Below, piece after piece: positions 132 to 33,002 of a stretch of DNA of 38,949 bases. The stretch lies in UHGV virus genome UHGV-0097970; one strand, written 5' to 3'. Source of the DNA: a virus. The position numbers were made by a program, and so were the translations under genes. The number at the start of each line of letters is the position of its first letter. Positions within the stretch are counted from its first letter, which is position 1. Below the pieces are notes generated by a model, which saw only the letters and a program-made list of their open reading frames with translations, was not told the origin of the DNA and made no database searches.

Positions 132-538
132 AACACTATTTTCACTTCAGCGGGTAGTCATCAAACTCACCATAACGAGCATCGTTGATGATGTATGTGA
201 TCACCACAAATATCACATCTGGACTAGTTCCGTCTTCATGCGCAGGTATCTGTTCACGCCTCCCTTTCTGCAAATCCTAAAGATGAGATTTTGGGGTTTT
301 GGGATATCTTTTTATCCTCAGTTCTCTATCCATTCTACAAAGCAGTAATGAACCATCACCGTGTGATAGTGAGGCATCCGCTACGTTAAGCGCAGAGAAA
401 TGATGCAGTGGTGGTCGGACTGGATTGATGAAAAGGTGTAGCAACCAACATTGCTATATCTCAGATAGCACAAAGCCTTGCAATCCAGTGCAAAGCTTTG
501 TGTGTCTCAGTTTTGTCTCATCGGTAATTATGTGTTCG

Positions 539-838
539 CTACGATGCAAGAATCCATACCAATAAGCATCCGATAATTGGGAAAGAAAAATCCAACAAAC
601 TTCCCACATCCCACACGCGTGGATCAAAACCTCCCCACCACGGCATGTTGACACGTTTCCCTTTCCCAAACTTTTCTATCCAGCGATATTCTGCCTGGGT
701 GTGTTCACGCGCAATGAAGAACGTACAACCGGCTATCGCACCGTAAGCCCAGTTTCCGGTAAAAATACCAACCAGTACCTGAGCCGCAAAAGCGCAAAGC
801 GAGTGAAGAAATGGAGTGACATCAATGCTCTTAATCAT
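539..838 (-). CDS. Small predicted membrane protein, hypothetical; possible moron
   Basis: 99-aa ORF with hydrophobic segments ([44 protein letters not shown]); its ATG overlaps the tailspike stop (ATGA at 835-838), implying co-transcription; sits between tailspike and attL. Confidence 0.5.
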
Positions 839-2892: not shown

Positions 2893-3024
2893 TTAATTTG
2901 CTCCAGATACAAGGAATGGCCGCAGCATGGCTACGGTTGGAATTTGTTACATACCTAAACGGTACGATTGTTGATTTGTACAGTGGGTTTTACGATGCCA
3001 TTCCACCCATTTGGTGAGGCATTG

Positions 3025-3282
3025 ATGATGTACAGCAAATACGATGAGGCGCAGTTCCACTTGAGGCTTACACACGAGTTGCACGCTAAGATTAAGCAGC
3101 GTGCAAAAATGAATAACAGGTCTATCAATTCCGAAATTGTGGCTACGATGGAAGAATCACTCTCCAAACCATCACCTGTAAGCGGGTATCGTGATGAAGA
3201 AGAAAGGCTGGCCTCATTAATCTCGGAACGAGTAAAAGAAGTTGCGGCTGAAATTCTAAGGAAAGAAAAAACCCGCGATTAA
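3025..3282 (+). CDS. mnt: Mnt-like ribbon-helix-helix repressor
   Basis: SKPSPVSGYRDEEERLA matches P22 Mnt SKPSPVTGYRNDAERLA; RHH N-terminus FHLRLTHELHAKIKQRAKMNNRSINSEIV; start chosen at internal ATG after GGTGAGG RBS. Confidence 0.8.
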   Translation: MMYSKYDEAQFHLRLTHELHAKIKQRAKMNNRSINSEIVATMEESLSKPSPVSGYRDEEERLASLISERVKEVAAEILRKEKTRD

Positions 3283-3308: not shown

Positions 3309-4037
3309 TTACGCCACATTTGAGCCATGTAGTAGGTGTTGTAGTGCTTTAACGCCTTCAGAATTGTAACGGAACGCCTCTACCTGTTTGCTGGAATGCG
3401 CCGATTTATCCAGGAAGAACTTCCCGTACTGCTCAGTTTTGAGGTTGTTTGCGTTAGCAATGCGACCAATCTTGTTGGCCGTTACTCCAAGCTGCTCTGC
3501 AACCTCCCCTGCTGAGTAGTAATGCTCTTCTATTGCCGGAAGAGGTATTGCATTAAAACCAACGAGCGGGTTGATTATACTTGCTGCCGCTGTCTGCTTT
3601 GCCTCAGGCGCAAGATTTGGCATCAGATCGAACAGATTGGTAACAGCTTCAACCGTCATTTTCAATGTTCGCGCTTGACGATACTCAACAAGTCCACTCG
3701 CTGATTTACCGCTTTTAATGTGCGCTTCTTGCATACTTTCAAGTTGGTCTACCAGTGAGCGGCGAACGGCTTTTGACTCGCGAGCGGCAACTCGCAATGC
3801 TTGCTTGATTGACATCTCAATGATAACCATCGAAGTTTTGTTCGCTTTTTGCACTACACTTTTTGTGTAGTGCTCTCCATCCAATTCATCTTCAATTTTC
3901 TCGATGAATTTGTTATTACGAACCTCCGGCTCACCGCACTGTCTACGAGCCTGATTTACCATCTCAAGAAGGCGCTGGCTGTCAATGGTTTTATCCGTGA
4001 CAACGGATCCGATGTTTGCTACATTCTTAAAAGTCAT
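3309..4037 (-). CDS. Putative antirepressor-module / phage regulatory protein
   Basis: 242-aa ORF downstream of ant; AAGGAA RBS 7 nt before MTFKNVANIG; C-terminal region looks like a DNA-binding segment (SAGEVAEQLGVTANKIGRIANANNL). Family assignment from memory only. Confidence 0.45.
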   Translation of the reverse strand: MTFKNVANIGSVVTDKTIDSQRLLEMVNQARRQCGEPEVRNNKFIEKIEDELDGEHYTKSVVQKANKTSMVIIEMSIKQALRVAARESKAVRRSLVDQLESMQEAHIKSGKSASGLVEYRQARTLKMTVEAVTNLFDLMPNLAPEAKQTAAASIINPLVGFNAIPLPAIEEHYYSAGEVAEQLGVTANKIGRIANANNLKTEQYGKFFLDKSAHSSKQVEAFRYNSEGVKALQHLLHGSNVA

Positions 4038-4075
4038 TAGGCATTCCTTATGTGGTAGTAAGGGTGTGACATAGG

Positions 4076-4106
4076 CCGCCAGCAGCACACTGGCGGTTTT
4101 CTTTTT
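4076..4106 (+). terminator. Intrinsic terminator on + strand, antisense to the ant operon
   Basis: CCGCCAG-cagcaca-CTGGCGG followed by ttttcttttt on the + strand. Confidence 0.5.
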
Positions 4107-4125: not shown

Positions 4126-4752
4126 TCAATGAATCCATTCCTCGCCGCGCAGTTTTGCCAGCATTGGCTGAGCGTTCTTTACGACAAAATTGTTGGTATC
4201 AAGATTCTTCATTTCACGAAGAAGTGATTTCTTGGTTTCTTCTGACATATAGCGAGTCTCATATGCGATATCGTAAATCCTTCCTGAAAGCTCAGAACAA
4301 ATTTGCTTCATTCCTGGGTAGATGTGTTTGCACATTTGTTGACTCTTCTCCATCCACAATTGTAAGTAGCAGAGATTAACCAGTTCTTCGTCAGTAAACT
4401 GTTTTGCAATCGGTGAGCATTCTGCCTGCCGATCCAAAATATCCAGCACCCAGCGGCGGAACTCTTTGGCTACCGGAGTGCGAGCAAACATCGCGATTAG
4501 GTGGGCACCGCGTAGTGAGAAAACTCGCACTTTTTTGCGATAATTTCCTGAGGTACTCACTTCGAGTACCTGAGTCATTCCAGCGCTAAACTCATCGCTA
4601 TACTTGTTATAAATCATTGTTACTGCACGACTATTTGCGTATTTAAGTGCAGATGCAATATTAGATGATGTAAACCAAACACCATGCATATCACGGGTGG
4701 GCACCAACTCAACTCCGTGGAAGTTGTATTCTGATTTTGCTACAATATTCAT
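4126..4752 (-). CDS. ant: Antirepressor Ant (Bro-N domain)
   Basis: MNIVAKSEYNFHGVELVPTRDMHGVWFTSSNIASAL...FSLRGAHLIAMFARTPVAKEFRRWVLDIL is a Bro-N-type antirepressor N-terminus; start set at internal ATG preceded by GGAAA; follows arc. Confidence 0.8.
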   Translation of the reverse strand: MNIVAKSEYNFHGVELVPTRDMHGVWFTSSNIASALKYANSRAVTMIYNKYSDEFSAGMTQVLEVSTSGNYRKKVRVFSLRGAHLIAMFARTPVAKEFRRWVLDILDRQAECSPIAKQFTDEELVNLCYLQLWMEKSQQMCKHIYPGMKQICSELSGRIYDIAYETRYMSEETKKSLLREMKNLDTNNFVVKNAQPMLAKLRGEEWIH

Positions 4753-4825
4753 GTTAGTTTCCTTGCATACGGTTACTGACATAGAGGCCCGGTTTGTGTT
4801 CGCGCACTGCCGGGCTTCACTATTT
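4743..4825 (+). ncRNA. Candidate sar-like antisense RNA covering ant RBS/start and arc 3' end
   Basis: Extended -10 TGcTACAAT at 4728-4736 (+) inside the ant start region; + strand hairpin GCCCGG...CCGGGC (4777-4805) followed by T-rich tract over the arc stop. Confidence 0.3.
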
Positions 4826-4999
4826 TTATTGGATGACAACATCGCCCTTTGCCTCAAGTTTCATCAATAACTCCATTCGATAAGCTATCTCTGCCTGAAT
4901 TGACCTATGGCATCTTTTTGCTGATTCGCGGATATGTGAATCAACCTTTTCTGTAAAACGAACCTGACGCGGCTTGATGGAAGATATCTTTTCAGTCAT
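4826..4999 (-). CDS. arc: Arc-like ribbon-helix-helix repressor (57 aa, below ORF-track cutoff)
   Basis: My translation: MTEKISSIKPRQVRFTEKVDSHIRESAKRCHRSIQAEIAYRMELLMKLEAKGDVVIQ; AGGAG RBS 6 nt upstream; RHH pattern as in P22 Arc; directly upstream of ant. Confidence 0.7.
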   Translation of the reverse strand: MTEKISSIKPRQVRFTEKVDSHIRESAKRCHRSIQAEIAYRMELLMKLEAKGDVVIQ

Positions 5000-5041: not shown

Positions 5042-5077
5042 TAGTTTGATTATTCACTCACACTCAGTATGAGTCAA
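5042..5077 (-). promoter_or_regulatory. Pant-like promoter for arc-ant with overlapping inverted repeat
   Basis: Minus strand -35 TTGACT (comp. 5072-5077), 17-bp spacer, -10 AATAAT (comp. 5049-5054); ACTCA-N3-TGAGT inverted repeat at 5062-5074 overlaps the -35. Confidence 0.5.
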
Positions 5078-5098: not shown

Positions 5099-5740
5099 AT
5101 GAATTTTGACGATCAATTCCCATCAAGAGTATCTCTGGCAAGACAGTCCAGGGGTATGACGCAGGCGCAGTTGTCAAAATTAGCTGGTGTTGTTCAACGT
5201 CAAATAGCTGCATACGAGGGTGGTGAGGCTAAACCACGGCTTCGGGTATTGCAGGCATTAGCCAACGCATTAGGTACTACGGCTGAGTGGTTAGCTCTAG
5301 GTGAAGGTCAGGGTCCGGGAACAAAAAACGTCATGCCTGACGTTCTGGTAAAGCAAATACCAATCCTCAAACTAGATGAAGTTATGCATTACCTAAACAC
5401 AGGTGAACATTCATCGTCTAGATTTCATCCGGCAATATACAATGTTGGTGACTCTGCATTTGCATTGACTATTGAAGGTGAAGCTATGACTACAAGTTCA
5501 GGTATTAGCTTTCCCAGAGGATCAGTTGTCACGTTCAGCCCTCTAGTAAAAGCTAAAAGCAAAGATTATGTAATAGCATCATTGGATAAAGAGCAAATAT
5601 TGAGCTTCAAGCAGGTTTACATTGGTGAAATAGAGACAAACTTAGTATCCCTAAACCCAATGTATCCTAATATTCTTGTTAGAAATGAAGATGTTAGTAT
5701 TTTGGCAACCGCAGTTTACCTTGAAATCCCGTTGCTTTGA
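5099..5740 (+). CDS. CI/LexA-family repressor (HTH_XRE + S24 fold) with Ala at the nucleophile position
   Basis: N-terminal HTH (GMTQAQLSKLAGVVQRQIAAYEGGEAKP); C-terminal region aligns by eye to lambda CI S24 domain (DSAFALTIEGEAM vs DSAFWLEVEGNSM; LVSLNPMYPNI vs LQPLNPQYPMI); the GxSM serine is Ala. Confidence 0.8.
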   Translation: MNFDDQFPSRVSLARQSRGMTQAQLSKLAGVVQRQIAAYEGGEAKPRLRVLQALANALGTTAEWLALGEGQGPGTKNVMPDVLVKQIPILKLDEVMHYLNTGEHSSSRFHPAIYNVGDSAFALTIEGEAMTTSSGISFPRGSVVTFSPLVKAKSKDYVIASLDKEQILSFKQVYIGEIETNLVSLNPMYPNILVRNEDVSILATAVYLEIPLL

Positions 5741-5804
5741 TATCCTTTAGGAAGCGACACATTATCATCCGGTGTTCTGCTCAAAACTAAGGAGTGGCTA
5801 CTCA

Positions 5805-6443
5805 ATGAAAAAAATAGATATATATAGCGATACATCAGCCTATGTCATAGGCTCATTGGGTTTTTTAATTTTTTTTGTTTGGCAGTACCAGTCACTATCT
5901 CCAGGATGGCGATTTTTGGGGATGTCTTTGATATCACTTGGTGCAGGAATAGCAACGCAGGTGTTGATGTATCTCTTTAATGGATGGATCTCAAAAAGAG
6001 TTGAGAAAAAAAGAGCTACTTCAATATGTAGAAGCCTAGCTATTCCAGAAGACTCTACAGATCAGGATGATATTGCAAAATGTTGGCGGTATATGATTGC
6101 AAGATACTCAAATGAGTTACTGGCAAACAGACTGTCCGACTTAATCGGGATCGTAGTTACCTCTGTTGGAACAATCATCAGTATAGGGATATCAATTTGG
6201 TATGTCGGGATGATTGTCTATTTTGTTTGGAATAGAGACTTCAATGAACCTTCCATTCTTTTTATACCTTTATTTTTCAGGGTATTAGCATTCATATGTG
6301 AGTTATTGCTCTCTTTTTTCTGCAATGTTTTGTTCAACAGATACCCAGGTGAAGCAAGAAAGTTTAATAAAAACTATGATGAGTTAAGGAGAACAGATCC
6401 TTTTCTATCAAGCAAAGAGTTCCGCGATTCCATTCGCAATTAA
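5805..6443 (+). CDS. Multi-pass inner-membrane protein, hypothetical (SieA position)
   Basis: Four or more hydrophobic helices; very AT-rich relative to neighbours; TAAGGAG RBS before ATG at 5805 (track ORF starts 5772); lies between gp16 and immI module like P22 sieA; no sequence similarity recognised. Confidence 0.6.
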   Translation: MKKIDIYSDTSAYVIGSLGFLIFFVWQYQSLSPGWRFLGMSLISLGAGIATQVLMYLFNGWISKRVEKKRATSICRSLAIPEDSTDQDDIAKCWRYMIARYSNELLANRLSDLIGIVVTSVGTIISIGISIWYVGMIVYFVWNRDFNEPSILFIPLFFRVLAFICELLLSFFCNVLFNRYPGEARKFNKNYDELRRTDPFLSSKEFRDSIRN

Positions 6444-6464: not shown

Positions 6465-8306
6465 TTAGCGATCAGTTGCATCATTGGCAAGTATTGGTCT
6501 GATGGCATTTGCGGCGTTATTCAGCGCTCTTTCATAGGCTGGCGTTCCAGCTTTAGTGTTTGCCAGACGTAAGAGCGCATTCCTTGCTGCTTTGGACTCA
6601 TACAAGCGCATCATTGCACCAAAACCAGCCTCAAGCCCCATTGATACGCCAAGAGTCGCAGTTGCGCCAATCGTCCTTATCCTGTTGGCTTGCGATTGCC
6701 CCGTCTGAGTTACTACATTTGCGGTGTCTGACCTTGCTGTTTGCTGTAGAACTTCATTAAGAGCATCAAGTTCTTTCATGTGCTTTCCAGAAAAAATAGT
6801 GTTGTAAATTTCACCGCCTGACTGAGATTTCAGCTTATTAACTTCAGTGATGAACTTGGCTGGAGAGTCACCGGCCTTTTCCGCTATTTTGCTGACGTAA
6901 GCTGCACGCATAGCATCTTTCCCTTTATCATCCAGTGCGCTCCAGATTCGTTTCACGTCAGATGGTTTTCTGCTTAATACAACGGTATTTATAAGTTCAG
7001 GACTGGCTTCACTGCTTGCCTTGTTGAGTTTGTTAGCAATGTTTTTATTAAGCACCTTATTATAAACGTTTGCATAATCGGAATTTGCTTTAAGGTATTT
7101 TGCTGCGTCTGATGCACCGAGGTTTTTAGCAACTGCGTTACGAAGGTCTTTTGACATTGCATTCTCTACCATATTGGTAGCTGCTTTTGCCTGGTTGGGG
7201 AAGACCATAGCATCTCCCTGAACATTAGATCTAAATGCTGTTCTGTGCTGACGCAAGAGATCAAACGTAACATCCAAATCAGTTGCAGGGTTTGCTAATT
7301 CTTCACGTAGGTTACGCAAGGATGTAAGCAGGCTTTGATTGGCTGAAGTCCCAAGCCGTTCCTGTCTTGCGATCGCTGTATTCAGAGCATTCATGGTATT
7401 TGTGGTATCAACTGCGGCATTACCCATTTTATTGGTGACGTCATTGATAACAGCGCCAGCGGCATCCTTCCGCCCCCTTAACGTGGTGGTCAGAGATTTC
7501 ACCACATCATCAGGGTTGTACTCACCAAAACGGTCAAAATAATTTCTTACCAGCTTACTACGCGTTGCATATTGCTCCGCTCTCTTTGAGCCTGTCCCGA
7601 GCAAAGCCCCCTCGGCATCCTGAGTAAGGCCGCGAGTGAAAGCATTTTTCGGCGGGATAACATCAGATGTCATTGGTGTCACTCCCATCGATTCTGATGT
7701 GGCAATTTTCTTCGCCACTTCTGGCGCAATATCACCTTTTATAGCCGTTATTCCACGCCCTATTCCCTTTGCTGCTGCGGAAAGAACCCCCTGAGCGGCA
7801 AGGTTAACTCCGGCATTTTTGGCTGCATTTTGTGCGAAATCGCCTTTCTGGTTTGCGGCTTCTGCCAGTGATCCAATAGCCATGCTTCCTGCCGTTCCAA
7901 CTCCTGGAACTAAATACCCGCCAATTGTTTCTCCAGCTTGCGCATAAGGGTCTGTCGGTCGATCGACAGGGCGATAAACATCATCCAAAACCTTGGGGCC
8001 ACCAAGCCCCTGGCTGATTGCATTAATCAGACTTGCGCCACCCTGCAATACGTCAAATGGTATGTTTACCAGACCACGACCAGCCTGCTCTGCAATTTGC
8101 CCTGCACTTTGACCACCTGTGAGCCAATCGCCAGCTTTTTGCATCAATGATGGTTCTTCACGTGCTGGTTCATTATTGGCCTGATTAACTGTTTGTTGCT
8201 GAACAGCCTGACCAGCAAAATACTCATCAATGGCGGTGCCAATATCTTCCGTGCTCGTACCATCAGGGAAGGTAAATGTCTTACCGTTTGCAGTTACTTT
8301 CATCAT
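6465..8306 (-). CDS. Ejection protein, P22 gp16-like
   Basis: [33 protein letters not shown] resembles P22 gp16 N-terminus; size and synteny (last of 7-20-16). Confidence 0.8.
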
Positions 8307-22250: not shown

Positions 22251-22290
22251 AAAACGCAAAAAGCCCCGAGCTATTAACTCAGGGCTTTAT
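22251..22290 (-). terminator. Additional intrinsic terminator about 45 nt downstream of the pR' start
   Basis: Minus-strand AAGCCCTGAG-ttaatag-CTCGGGGCTT followed by TTTTGCGTTTT. Confidence 0.55.
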
Positions 22291-22314
22291 TTAACGAGTG
22301 CATTTATCCATCGT

Positions 22315-22350
22315 TGAGTCAAATTTACCCAACTTTATTCAAAAAGTCAA
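22315..22350 (-). promoter_or_regulatory. Late promoter pR' with qut-like site
   Basis: Minus-strand -35 TTGACT, 17-bp spacer tttttgaataaagttggg, -10 TAAATT, then TGACTCAACGATGG, near-identical to lambda pR'/qut from memory. Confidence 0.75.
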
Positions 22351-30400: not shown

Positions 30401-30490
30401 TGATTATAACCAAAGATAACTCAAGTTATAAAAAATAGCAATAACCTTTGTTATTTTACTTTGGATAACCGTAGTTATAGATTTGTGGGT
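30401..30490. promoter_or_regulatory. OR operator region with pR/pRM; three ATAAC-N4-GTTAT operators
   Basis: Sites at 30415-30428, 30440-30453, 30464-30477 spaced about 24-25 bp; minus-strand -10 TATAAT (comp. 30402-30407) upstream of cro. Confidence 0.7.
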
Positions 30491-31198
30491 ATGAAAACAT
30501 TCGCAGAAAGACTAAATGCAGCCATGAGCTCAGCTGGGGTATCACAATCACAGCTTGCTGACATGGTTGGAATATCTCAGCCAGCCATACAGAAGATGTC
30601 GTCCGGTAAAACAAACGGATCTCGCAAGATGGTTGAATTAGCCAATGCTTTAAAAGTGCGCCCTGAATGGCTTAGTTCTGGTATTGGTGAAATGAGGGAT
30701 GGTGCACATGAAGAACCATCCAATGTCCGTGAGTCATCTTTAAAAGCTGTGGTATGGGAAGACATTAAAAGAAACGATGACGAGTTTGTTGCGTTGCCTC
30801 TTCTTAACGTTTCGCTTTCAGCGGGAAGCGGTAGCTGCGAGCTAGAGGAATCATCGGAGTTCTCTTTGGTTTTCAGAAAGCACTATCTGAAAAAGATGGG
30901 AGTATCTGAAAGATCAGCCAAGCTAGTTAGGGTTGTAGGGCAAAGCATGGAACCAACGCTTCACGATGGCGATGTTGTTGGTGTTAACACGCAAGATACC
31001 ACCATCAGAGATGGTAAAACCTACGCTATTTGCCAGTCTGATTTGTTACGAGTAAAAACATTAATCGCCACCCCTACATCGGTGATAATCAGATCAATAA
31101 ATCGCGAAGAGTACCCGGATGAAGTAATGGATAGAGATGAATTTCATGAAACCGTAAGGATTATTGGCAGAGTATTCTGGTCGTCTCATAGTTGGTAA
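30491..31198 (+). CDS. cI: CI-type prophage repressor (HTH + active-looking S24 peptidase)
   Basis: HTH LSQSQLADMVGISQPAIQKM; C-terminal GQSMEPT (Ser present) and LRVKTL Lys; start at MKTFAERL since upstream ATG overlaps the operators. Confidence 0.9.
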   Translation: MKTFAERLNAAMSSAGVSQSQLADMVGISQPAIQKMSSGKTNGSRKMVELANALKVRPEWLSSGIGEMRDGAHEEPSNVRESSLKAVVWEDIKRNDDEFVALPLLNVSLSAGSGSCELEESSEFSLVFRKHYLKKMGVSERSAKLVRVVGQSMEPTLHDGDVVGVNTQDTTIRDGKTYAICQSDLLRVKTLIATPTSVIIRSINREEYPDEVMDRDEFHETVRIIGRVFWSSHSW

Positions 31199-32615: not shown

Positions 32616-32837
32616 TGGTGGCCTTTATTTTTAGCATAAACAACAGAATAAACACTGCACTGTGCATTCATTCCAGCGAGTGAATACACGGAGCAATGTC
32701 GCTCGTAACGAAACAGGAGCCGACTTGTTCTGATTATTGGAAATCTTCTTTGCCCTCCAGTGTGAGGGCCTTTTTATATGCATACCAATAACGCTTCACT
32801 CGAGGCGTTTTCGTTATGTATAAATAAGGAGCACACC

Positions 32838-33002
32838 ATGCAATATGCCATTGCAGGGTGGCCTGTTGCTGGCTGCCCTTCCGAATCTTTACTTGAACGA
32901 ATCACCCGTAAATTACGTGACGGATGGAAACGCCTTATCGACATACTTAATCAGCCAGGAGTCCCAAAAAATGGATCAAACACTTATGGCTATCCAGACT
33001 AA
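32838..33002 (+). CDS. cIII: CIII (FtsH inhibitor)
   Basis: MQYAIAGWPVAGCPSESLLERITRKLRDGWKRLIDILNQPGVPKNGSNTYGYPD appears identical to lambda CIII; AAGGAG RBS. Confidence 0.95.
   Translation: MQYAIAGWPVAGCPSESLLERITRKLRDGWKRLIDILNQPGVPKNGSNTYGYPD

Follow-up and report, generated by a model that had tools for sequence, protein, structure and literature searches.

The + strand of the analysed window (the whole stretch of 38,949 nucleotides of the viral genome UHGV-0097970) very probably encodes, at 4738-4827, a diverged homologue of the sar RNA of phage P22, which lies antisense to the leader of an ant-type antirepressor gene and would hold down Ant synthesis. P22 sar was defined by Liao et al. 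1987, Wu et al. 1987 and Schaefer & McClure 1997, as these are cited in PMC2629481 and PMC7968456. According to the descriptions of sar given in PMC7968456, PMC2629481 and PMC12111858, this RNA pairs with the ant leader, blocks the RBS and lowers Ant synthesis, and its expression was detected by small-RNA sequencing during infection (PMC13397905). The synthesis of the RNA in the window, its 3' end and its repression of ant translation are inferred from the P22 experiments.

Genome setting of the ant junction

The window is a P22-like (Lederbergvirus) genome of the E. coli P22-like prophage type, and its nearest phage record is Escherichia phage JEP4, which is 96% identical over the region of the finding. 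The site lies in the variable region between a DNA-transfer gene (6465-8306, - strand) and the tailspike gene. In P22 this place is taken by immI, the secondary immunity region, for which 'ant moron' is another name (PMC2629481). The ant moron of the prophage type seen in the window is of the 'HS-1 type'. The features of the region are listed in Table 1.

Table 1. Features around the ant junction and the second antirepressor gene of the window (feature, position, strand, details, basis)
Feature	Position	Strand	Details	Basis
Predicted sar-like antisense RNA	4753..4825	+	start G4753; predicted 3' end ~4821-4827, 69-75 nt	
Hairpin 1	4753..4780	+	GUUAGU/ACUGAC stem, 16-nt loop	fold
Hairpin 2, predicted terminator stem-loop	4784..4818	+	GAGGCCCGGU..GUGU / GCAC.GCCGGGCUUC	fold
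T-rich tail of the predicted terminator	4821..4830	+	TATTTTTATT	sequence
Psar-like extended -10	4738..4746	+	TGCTACAAT; TG 4738-4739, hexamer TACAAT 4741-4746	sequence
ant-type antirepressor gene, predicted sar target	4126..4752	-	208 aa; Bro-N and P22_AR_C domains	Pfam
57-aa ORF at the arc position, first gene of the operon	4826..4999	-	phrog_10182, unknown function	
Pant-like promoter	5049..5077	-	TTGACT-17-AATAAT, 10/12 matches	promoter scan
C2-like repressor gene, divergent from the arc-position/ant operon	5099-5740	+	213 aa; HTH_3 and Peptidase_S24	
Second antirepressor-family gene	3309-4037	-	phrog_1726	protein families
Arc-family, mnt-like gene	2968-3282	+		Pfam
Second candidate, extended -10	4017-4025	+	TGcTACATT, in codons 5-7 of the gene at 3309-4037 (-)	
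Second candidate, anti-Shine-Dalgarno	4044-4049	+	TTCCTT	sequence
Second candidate, terminator	4073-4106	+	stem 4073-4099, T run to 4106	terminator scan

The ATG of ant is the complement of 4750-4752 and its RBS, AAGGAA, that of 4759-4764. The Ant protein of the window was placed in the PHROG 'anti-repressor Ant' families. Unlike the 300-aa Ant of P22, it has a Bro-N domain at its N-terminus, and the two proteins share the C-terminal domain alone (29% identity, confined to the C-terminal 69 aa). The ORF upstream of ant ends with a stop codon at 4826-4828. The earlier note had called this gene arc. BLASTP detected no sequence similarity and returned no alignment of the 57-aa product with P22 Arc. 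The product gave a ParD_like hit in Pfam (E 8e-4, below the curated cut-off) and a match to AmrZ 3qoq (E 0.8). From these weak hints it possibly adopts a ribbon-helix-helix fold, and it is not a detectable Arc homologue. The ε34 paper describes the HS-1-type region as being without arc (PMC2629481).

Both the arc-position ORF and ant lie downstream of the Pant-like promoter, which is convergent with Psar and faces it from a distance of ~290 nt, much as in P22. The operon differs from the P22 immI module (mnt / arc-ant / sar) in that its first gene does not belong to Pfam Arc and is not recognisable as Arc, and in that the divergent repressor is C2-like (HTH + S24 peptidase) and not Mnt. The product of this repressor gene is C2/LexA-like, and the main immunity repressor, which is of the same type, is encoded at 30461-31198. 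A self-cleaving repressor beside Pant would make antirepressor expression responsive to DNA damage. The mnt-like gene is flanked by the second antirepressor gene and the tailspike gene, and is convergent with the ant operon, whereas its P22 counterpart is divergent. A 223-aa ORF at 5772-6443 (+), which shares its relative position with P22 sieA, matched the SieA-like superinfection-exclusion family phrog_7745 (E 4.7e-21). Only one Rfam family reached its gathering score in the window, namely that of the lambda cIII thermoregulator element (RF01804, 88.5 bits) at 32825-32883 (+).

A promoter, two hairpins and a terminator are predicted on the + strand

The earlier note had pointed to an extended -10, TGcTACAAT, on the + strand inside the first codons of ant. 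We confirmed it, and the element overlaps ant codons 2-5. The predicted start, G4753, is the base adjoining the ant ATG, 6 nt downstream of the -10. The -35 is poor (TGGAAG at 4718-4723, 3/6). Neither the Psar-like promoter nor the sar-like terminator was called by a simple promoter/terminator scan, since the -35 is weak, hairpin 2 is bulged and its loop exceeds the limit of the scan. The pattern TGNTAYAMT occurs once in the window against 4.2 occurrences expected, and thus the -10 motif alone is not rarer than chance. The significance of the site is in its position, homology and conservation, not in the rarity of the motif.

The segment 4753-4826 folded at -33.3 kcal/mol (z = -5.7), and none of 200 shuffled sequences was as stable. 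Loop 1 holds the anti-Shine-Dalgarno sequence UUCCUU (4759-4764), complementary to the ant RBS. Hairpin 2 is followed on the + strand by ACUAUUUUUAUU, whose T run (4823-4827) extends into the stop codon of the arc-position ORF, in agreement with the + strand hairpin and T-rich tract that had been claimed for this place. A U run follows the hairpin on the + strand only, with none on the - strand, and the predicted terminator is therefore specific to the + strand. The predicted RNA is perfectly complementary to the entire intercistronic leader of the ant mRNA, including the Shine-Dalgarno sequence. Because it starts one base beyond the ant ATG, it covers the RBS and the leader and not the start codon. 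Of the antisense transcript of ~80 nt over the ant RBS that was originally suggested, the coverage of the RBS holds, and the length is replaced by the shorter prediction in Table 1. A coding reading of the + strand, in the form of a mechanically called 57-aa ORF at 4697-4870, was rejected because, within this ORF, the lengths of the variants described below differ by non-multiples of three (79, 80 and 82 nt between the -10 and GGGCTTCA).

The element is related to P22 sar beyond the reach of the Rfam model

The Rfam model of sar (RF00262) matched 599..532 of the P22 immI record X01916 with 97.8 bits, that is, from the base adjoining the ant ATG (600) to the base beyond the arc stop codon (529-531). 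With a slash between promoter and RNA, the P22 sequence reads aaaaTTGCTATACTATTCAT / GTTGGTTTTTCTCCAAGGATTTACTGACAACCGAAGCCC...GGGGCTTCAACT and that of the window atttTTGCTACAATATTCAT / GTTAGTTTCCTTGCATACGGTTACTGACATAGAGGCCC...CGGGCTTCACT. The two have in common the block TTGCTA-A-TATTCAT / GTT-GTTT, the ACTGAC (ACUGAC) arm of hairpin 1 and GGGCTTCA as the 3' arm of hairpin 2. The distance from the -10 to the start is also equal, with 6 nt between TGcTATACT and G599 in P22 and between TGcTACAAT and G4753 in the window. The sequence comparison with P22 sar thus bore out the likeness that the earlier note had drawn, in the promoter block, the start spacing and the arms of both hairpins.

The likeness extends to the arrangement. 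In P22, sar likewise takes up the whole space from the first gene of the Pant operon to ant, is antisense to the ant RBS, and is driven by the same type of promoter in the same register, with the extended -10 in ant codons 2-5 and the start G adjoining the ATG. It is of about the same size (~69 nt) and has the same two-hairpin shape, with a terminator hairpin ending in GGGCUUCA. Both RNAs carry an anti-Shine-Dalgarno sequence in loop 1, CUCC in P22 as compared to UUCCUU in the window, although the two Shine-Dalgarno sequences differ. Hairpin 2 of the window is longer and has internal bulges, its T run is stronger, and its -10 hexamer is TACAAT where P22 has TATACT.

RF00262 gave no match in the window at its gathering threshold of 43 bits, so that the element does not belong to the Rfam family at that threshold, nor did it give one at E ≤ 10 when 251-nt and 83-nt queries were used. 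We therefore built a covariance model, R1, from ten P22-type sequences only, with the Rfam structure. When the window was searched with the filters off, R1 matched 4753-4825 (+) over its full length with 31.3 bits (E 1.3e-4). This was its single significant match in the 38.9 kb, the next having an E value of 0.4. The R1 scores were graded, with 95-104 bits for the P22 type, 47-67 bits for intermediates such as L084, L016, SPN3UB and L027, and 26-32 bits for the window type and others. At its gathering threshold, RF00262 recovered the intermediates L084, L016 and SPN3UB (48-64 bits) and missed the window-type loci L004 and L017 as well as five other variants. A second model built from all variants, R2, scored the window element at 65.5 bits. 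On this comparison of sequence and structure, homology of the window element to P22-type sar is detectable. The R1 match and the graded intermediates thus point to a sar homologue that is beyond the reach of the curated model, rather than a mere look-alike with the same promoter and start register.

Plain pairwise alignment was of no use at this distance. Global alignment to P22 gave a meaningless 0%, and a re-run with lenient gaps gave 56-62% even for unrelated flanks; these percentages were not used as evidence, since unrelated flanks score alike. SymR (RF01809) was the only family that the junction matched at permissive E values. An identity with SymR was rejected, as the score was 21.8 bits against a gathering threshold of 61 (E 0.015-0.045, on short queries), which is at the level of chance or of shared architecture. 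Both sar models also matched 22252-22315 (-) weakly (14-15 bits, E 0.3-0.4). This site has the look of a terminator hairpin (AAAGCCCUGAG...CUCGGGGCUUUUU), its likeness to sar is confined to hairpin 2, and we do not count it as a copy of sar.

Conservation and covariation favour an RNA of the + strand

A pattern scan of viral contigs returned at least 119 loci with 36 distinct promoter-to-hairpin sequences. Each of 27 representative variants, folded alone, formed the same two hairpins (27/27). A plain MAFFT alignment of these 27 variants placed the 5' hairpin out of register, and RNAalifold accordingly recovered hairpin 2 only; this alignment was replaced by model-based alignments and independent single-sequence folds. 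In A5, a model-based alignment with 41 distinct rows, pairing was present in 98.4% of the cells, 9 of the 20 pairs had changes on both sides, and the covariation score was 0.348 as compared to 0.159 for shuffled alignments and at most 0.061 with the partners slid.

Since the pattern used for the first sample included the promoter, a second sample was drawn by Ant protein homology alone (61-100% amino-acid identity, 42 distinct junctions). R2 matched all 42 junctions with 33-73 bits, and every one of them had the T run after hairpin 2. Both hairpins formed in 41 of the 42 variants folded alone; the exception was L275, whose lowest-energy fold keeps hairpin 2 and loses hairpin 1. In A6, the alignment of this sample, changes on both sides were present in 15 of the 20 pairs, with a score of 0.461 against 0.223 shuffled. 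For hairpin 1, such changes affected 4 of the 6 stem pairs in A5 and all 6 in A6, and for hairpin 2, compensatory changes were found in 5 (A5) and 9 (A6) of the 14 pairs. Two things inflate these covariation measures, the fitting of the alignments to the model structure and the relatedness of the sequences. Even so, the independent folds and the controls with slid partners speak for a genuine signal.

The promoter was conserved in the same sample. TAnnnT stood at -12 to -7 relative to the G that follows CAT in 42/42 junctions selected by Ant protein homology, the hexamer being TACAAT, TACACT, TAAACT or TATAAT, and the upstream TG was present in 38 of them. Codons 3-4 of ant are read from the strand complementary to the -10 hexamer. 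The Ant residues over the -10 are N-I-V-A (AAT ATT GTA GCA) in the window as compared to N-S-I-A (AAT AGT ATA GCA) in P22, and the TA...T and TG positions are kept although the overlapping residues differ. This is a clear case of a promoter constraining the N-terminus of a protein, with the -10 hexamer kept while the Ant residues vary.

Covariation alone is silent on the functional strand, since the complements of both hairpins can also form in the leader of the ant mRNA. This fact, together with the inclusion of the ant RBS in the segment, would fit a junction that acts only in the - strand mRNA, as a structured leader for processing, coupling or attenuation, with no antisense RNA. We consider this improbable. 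Among the conserved pairs, many are of the G-U kind on the + strand and become A-C mismatches on the - strand (GU:19 and UG:26, one pair each, in A6; UG:31 and GU:28, in two pairs, in A5), which favours the + strand as the structured RNA. Furthermore, a structured leader leaves unexplained the T run 3' of hairpin 2 on the + strand only and the -10 hexamer held at a fixed spacing in all 42 variants despite the amino-acid changes, and the homologous P22 element is, in the accounts of sar in PMC7968456 and PMC13397905, an antisense RNA shown by experiment.

A slightly less probable possibility is that the hairpin and T run mainly terminate other + strand transcription, shielding the Pant region and the C2-like gene, and that TGcTACAAT is incidental. 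The -10 motif is statistically ordinary when taken alone, and the mnt-like gene lies upstream in the required orientation, with spurious antisense promoters as an alternative source of transcripts. However, there is no + strand gene immediately upstream for the terminator to serve, and transcripts from further upstream would already end at the + strand terminator at 4073-4106. Moreover, P22 and the 42 variants share the position of the -10 and the start base with the window, and hairpin 1 and the anti-Shine-Dalgarno loop would have no role in a simple terminator, yet they covary. The coincidence by chance of a stable hairpin with a promoter-like motif in a short stretch between genes, with which the unremarkable single-motif statistics and the failure of the simple scans to call either signal would agree, is effectively refuted by the E value of 1.3e-4 obtained with R1, a model without this sequence type, by the covarying structure, by the features kept in the 42 junctions, and by the 100% conservation of the segment beside arc alleles that are only 51-53% identical (see below). 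Taken together, the conserved promoter, hairpins and T run and the covariation support a transcribed, structured + strand RNA, namely the sar homologue.

The sar segment lies at a joint between exchanged alleles

A 401-nt segment around the finding was 99-100% identical in prophages of several complete E. coli genomes, including GN02050 and HS. Of the 5,426 complete E. coli genomes, 71 had the sar junction. The junction pattern gave no match in two scans of a collection of species-representative genomes, and our statement on the host range is therefore confined to Escherichia and Salmonella records. In the prophages of E. coli E7476 and 19KM2326N, the sar segment was 100% identical to that of the window, and the body of ant was 82% and 99% identical, respectively. 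Their arc alleles were 51-53% identical to that of the window in a lenient alignment, a level that unrelated sequence also reaches; the identity is low because these prophages carry an allele of the Pfam Arc family. Many E. coli prophages matched the window at 4714-4832 only (94-100% identity). This is the exact span from promoter to terminator, and it is flanked there by a different ant body and a different arc allele. Conservation in the region is thus highest in the sar unit, and the unit sits at a recombination joint. Its place between unrelated regulator alleles illustrates the persistence of small regulatory RNAs when phages recombine.

No RNA feature was annotated at the junction in four related records, JEP4 and three RefSeq E. 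coli prophage regions, because the Rfam model misses the window subtype and several others. In Salmonella phage SPN3UB (L006, NC_019545), ant is annotated at 1901-2623 with an extended start (723 nt), so that the annotated gene spans the sar-like region and reaches into the arc-like gene. Judging from the conserved ATG and RBS, ant of SPN3UB would be the shorter gene of 639 nt. SPN3UB is a 47-kb phage that is not classified in Lederbergvirus in the taxonomy line of its record, and thus the arc-sar-ant cassette appears to occur outside P22-like phages.

A second antisense unit may precede the other antirepressor gene

A similar antisense unit appears to precede the second antirepressor gene (Table 1), and we present it as a lead. 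Its predicted RNA of ~72-76 nt would cover the RBS and the start codon of the gene. Among 33 usable variants collected by protein homology (69-100% identity), TGcTA and a -10-like hexamer (TACATT, TAAATT or TAAAGT) were found at the same offset in all 33. The terminator stem was invariant and carried seven different loops, and at least four DNA contexts followed beyond the terminator. The fold of the candidate had a z-score of -1.6. Neither R1 nor R2 detected it at E ≤ 10, and it was rejected as a sar homologue for that reason and kept as an analogous unit.

We regard as evenly balanced the proposal that two tandem antirepressor genes each carry their own cis-antisense RNA as a portable, self-silencing cassette, with sar as a joint for the exchange of alleles. 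If this is true, the unit of promoter, RBS and terminator would travel with its target gene, the sar segment would be a conserved joint for swapping unrelated arc and ant alleles, and the second sar-like RNA in an HS-1-type ant moron would be an undescribed RNA.

Proposed action and relation to known antisense RNAs

Based on the arrangement and on the P22 precedent, the sar-like RNA may act as described below. The extended -10 in the first ant codons would fire away from ant, starting at G4753, and transcription would end at the intrinsic terminator, right beside the stop codon of the small regulator gene that lies upstream of ant. The RNA made in this way, ~70 nt long, would pair with the ant leader, the Shine-Dalgarno sequence facing loop 1 of the RNA. 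This pairing would occlude the ant RBS and hold down Ant synthesis, and with less Ant the inactivation of the prophage repressor would be limited. The RNA would probably act once transcription from the Pant-like promoter that faces Psar is off, and on late transcripts that read through. Since the flanking regulator is not Arc and the divergent repressor is C2-like, the circuit differs from that of P22, and the timing or role of the RNA may differ as well.

SymR of symE and RNA-OUT of IS10 are likewise short structured antisense RNAs that arise from the 5' end of their target and lie over the RBS. They overlap the start codon, whereas the predicted RNA of the window starts just beyond it, and the score of SymR (see above) indicates no real sequence relationship. 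The c4 antisense RNA of phages P1 and P7 (immI), which controls the icd-ant operon, also blocks antirepressor synthesis in a secondary immunity region. It is processed from its target's own transcript, acts on upstream sites and through translational coupling, and is not known to be related to the window element in sequence or arrangement.

As sar is a textbook phage antisense RNA, its occurrence in a P22-like prophage is to be expected. From the model comparisons, the window element is a divergent subtype of the known sar family that is missed by standard RNA annotation, and with the variants collected here the model of the family could be re-seeded. The ε34 comparative paper viewed the HS-1-type ant moron, being without arc, as probably controlled in a manner unlike that of P22 (PMC2629481). 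A sar homologue in this type of ant moron would mean that at least the RNA layer of control is common with P22.
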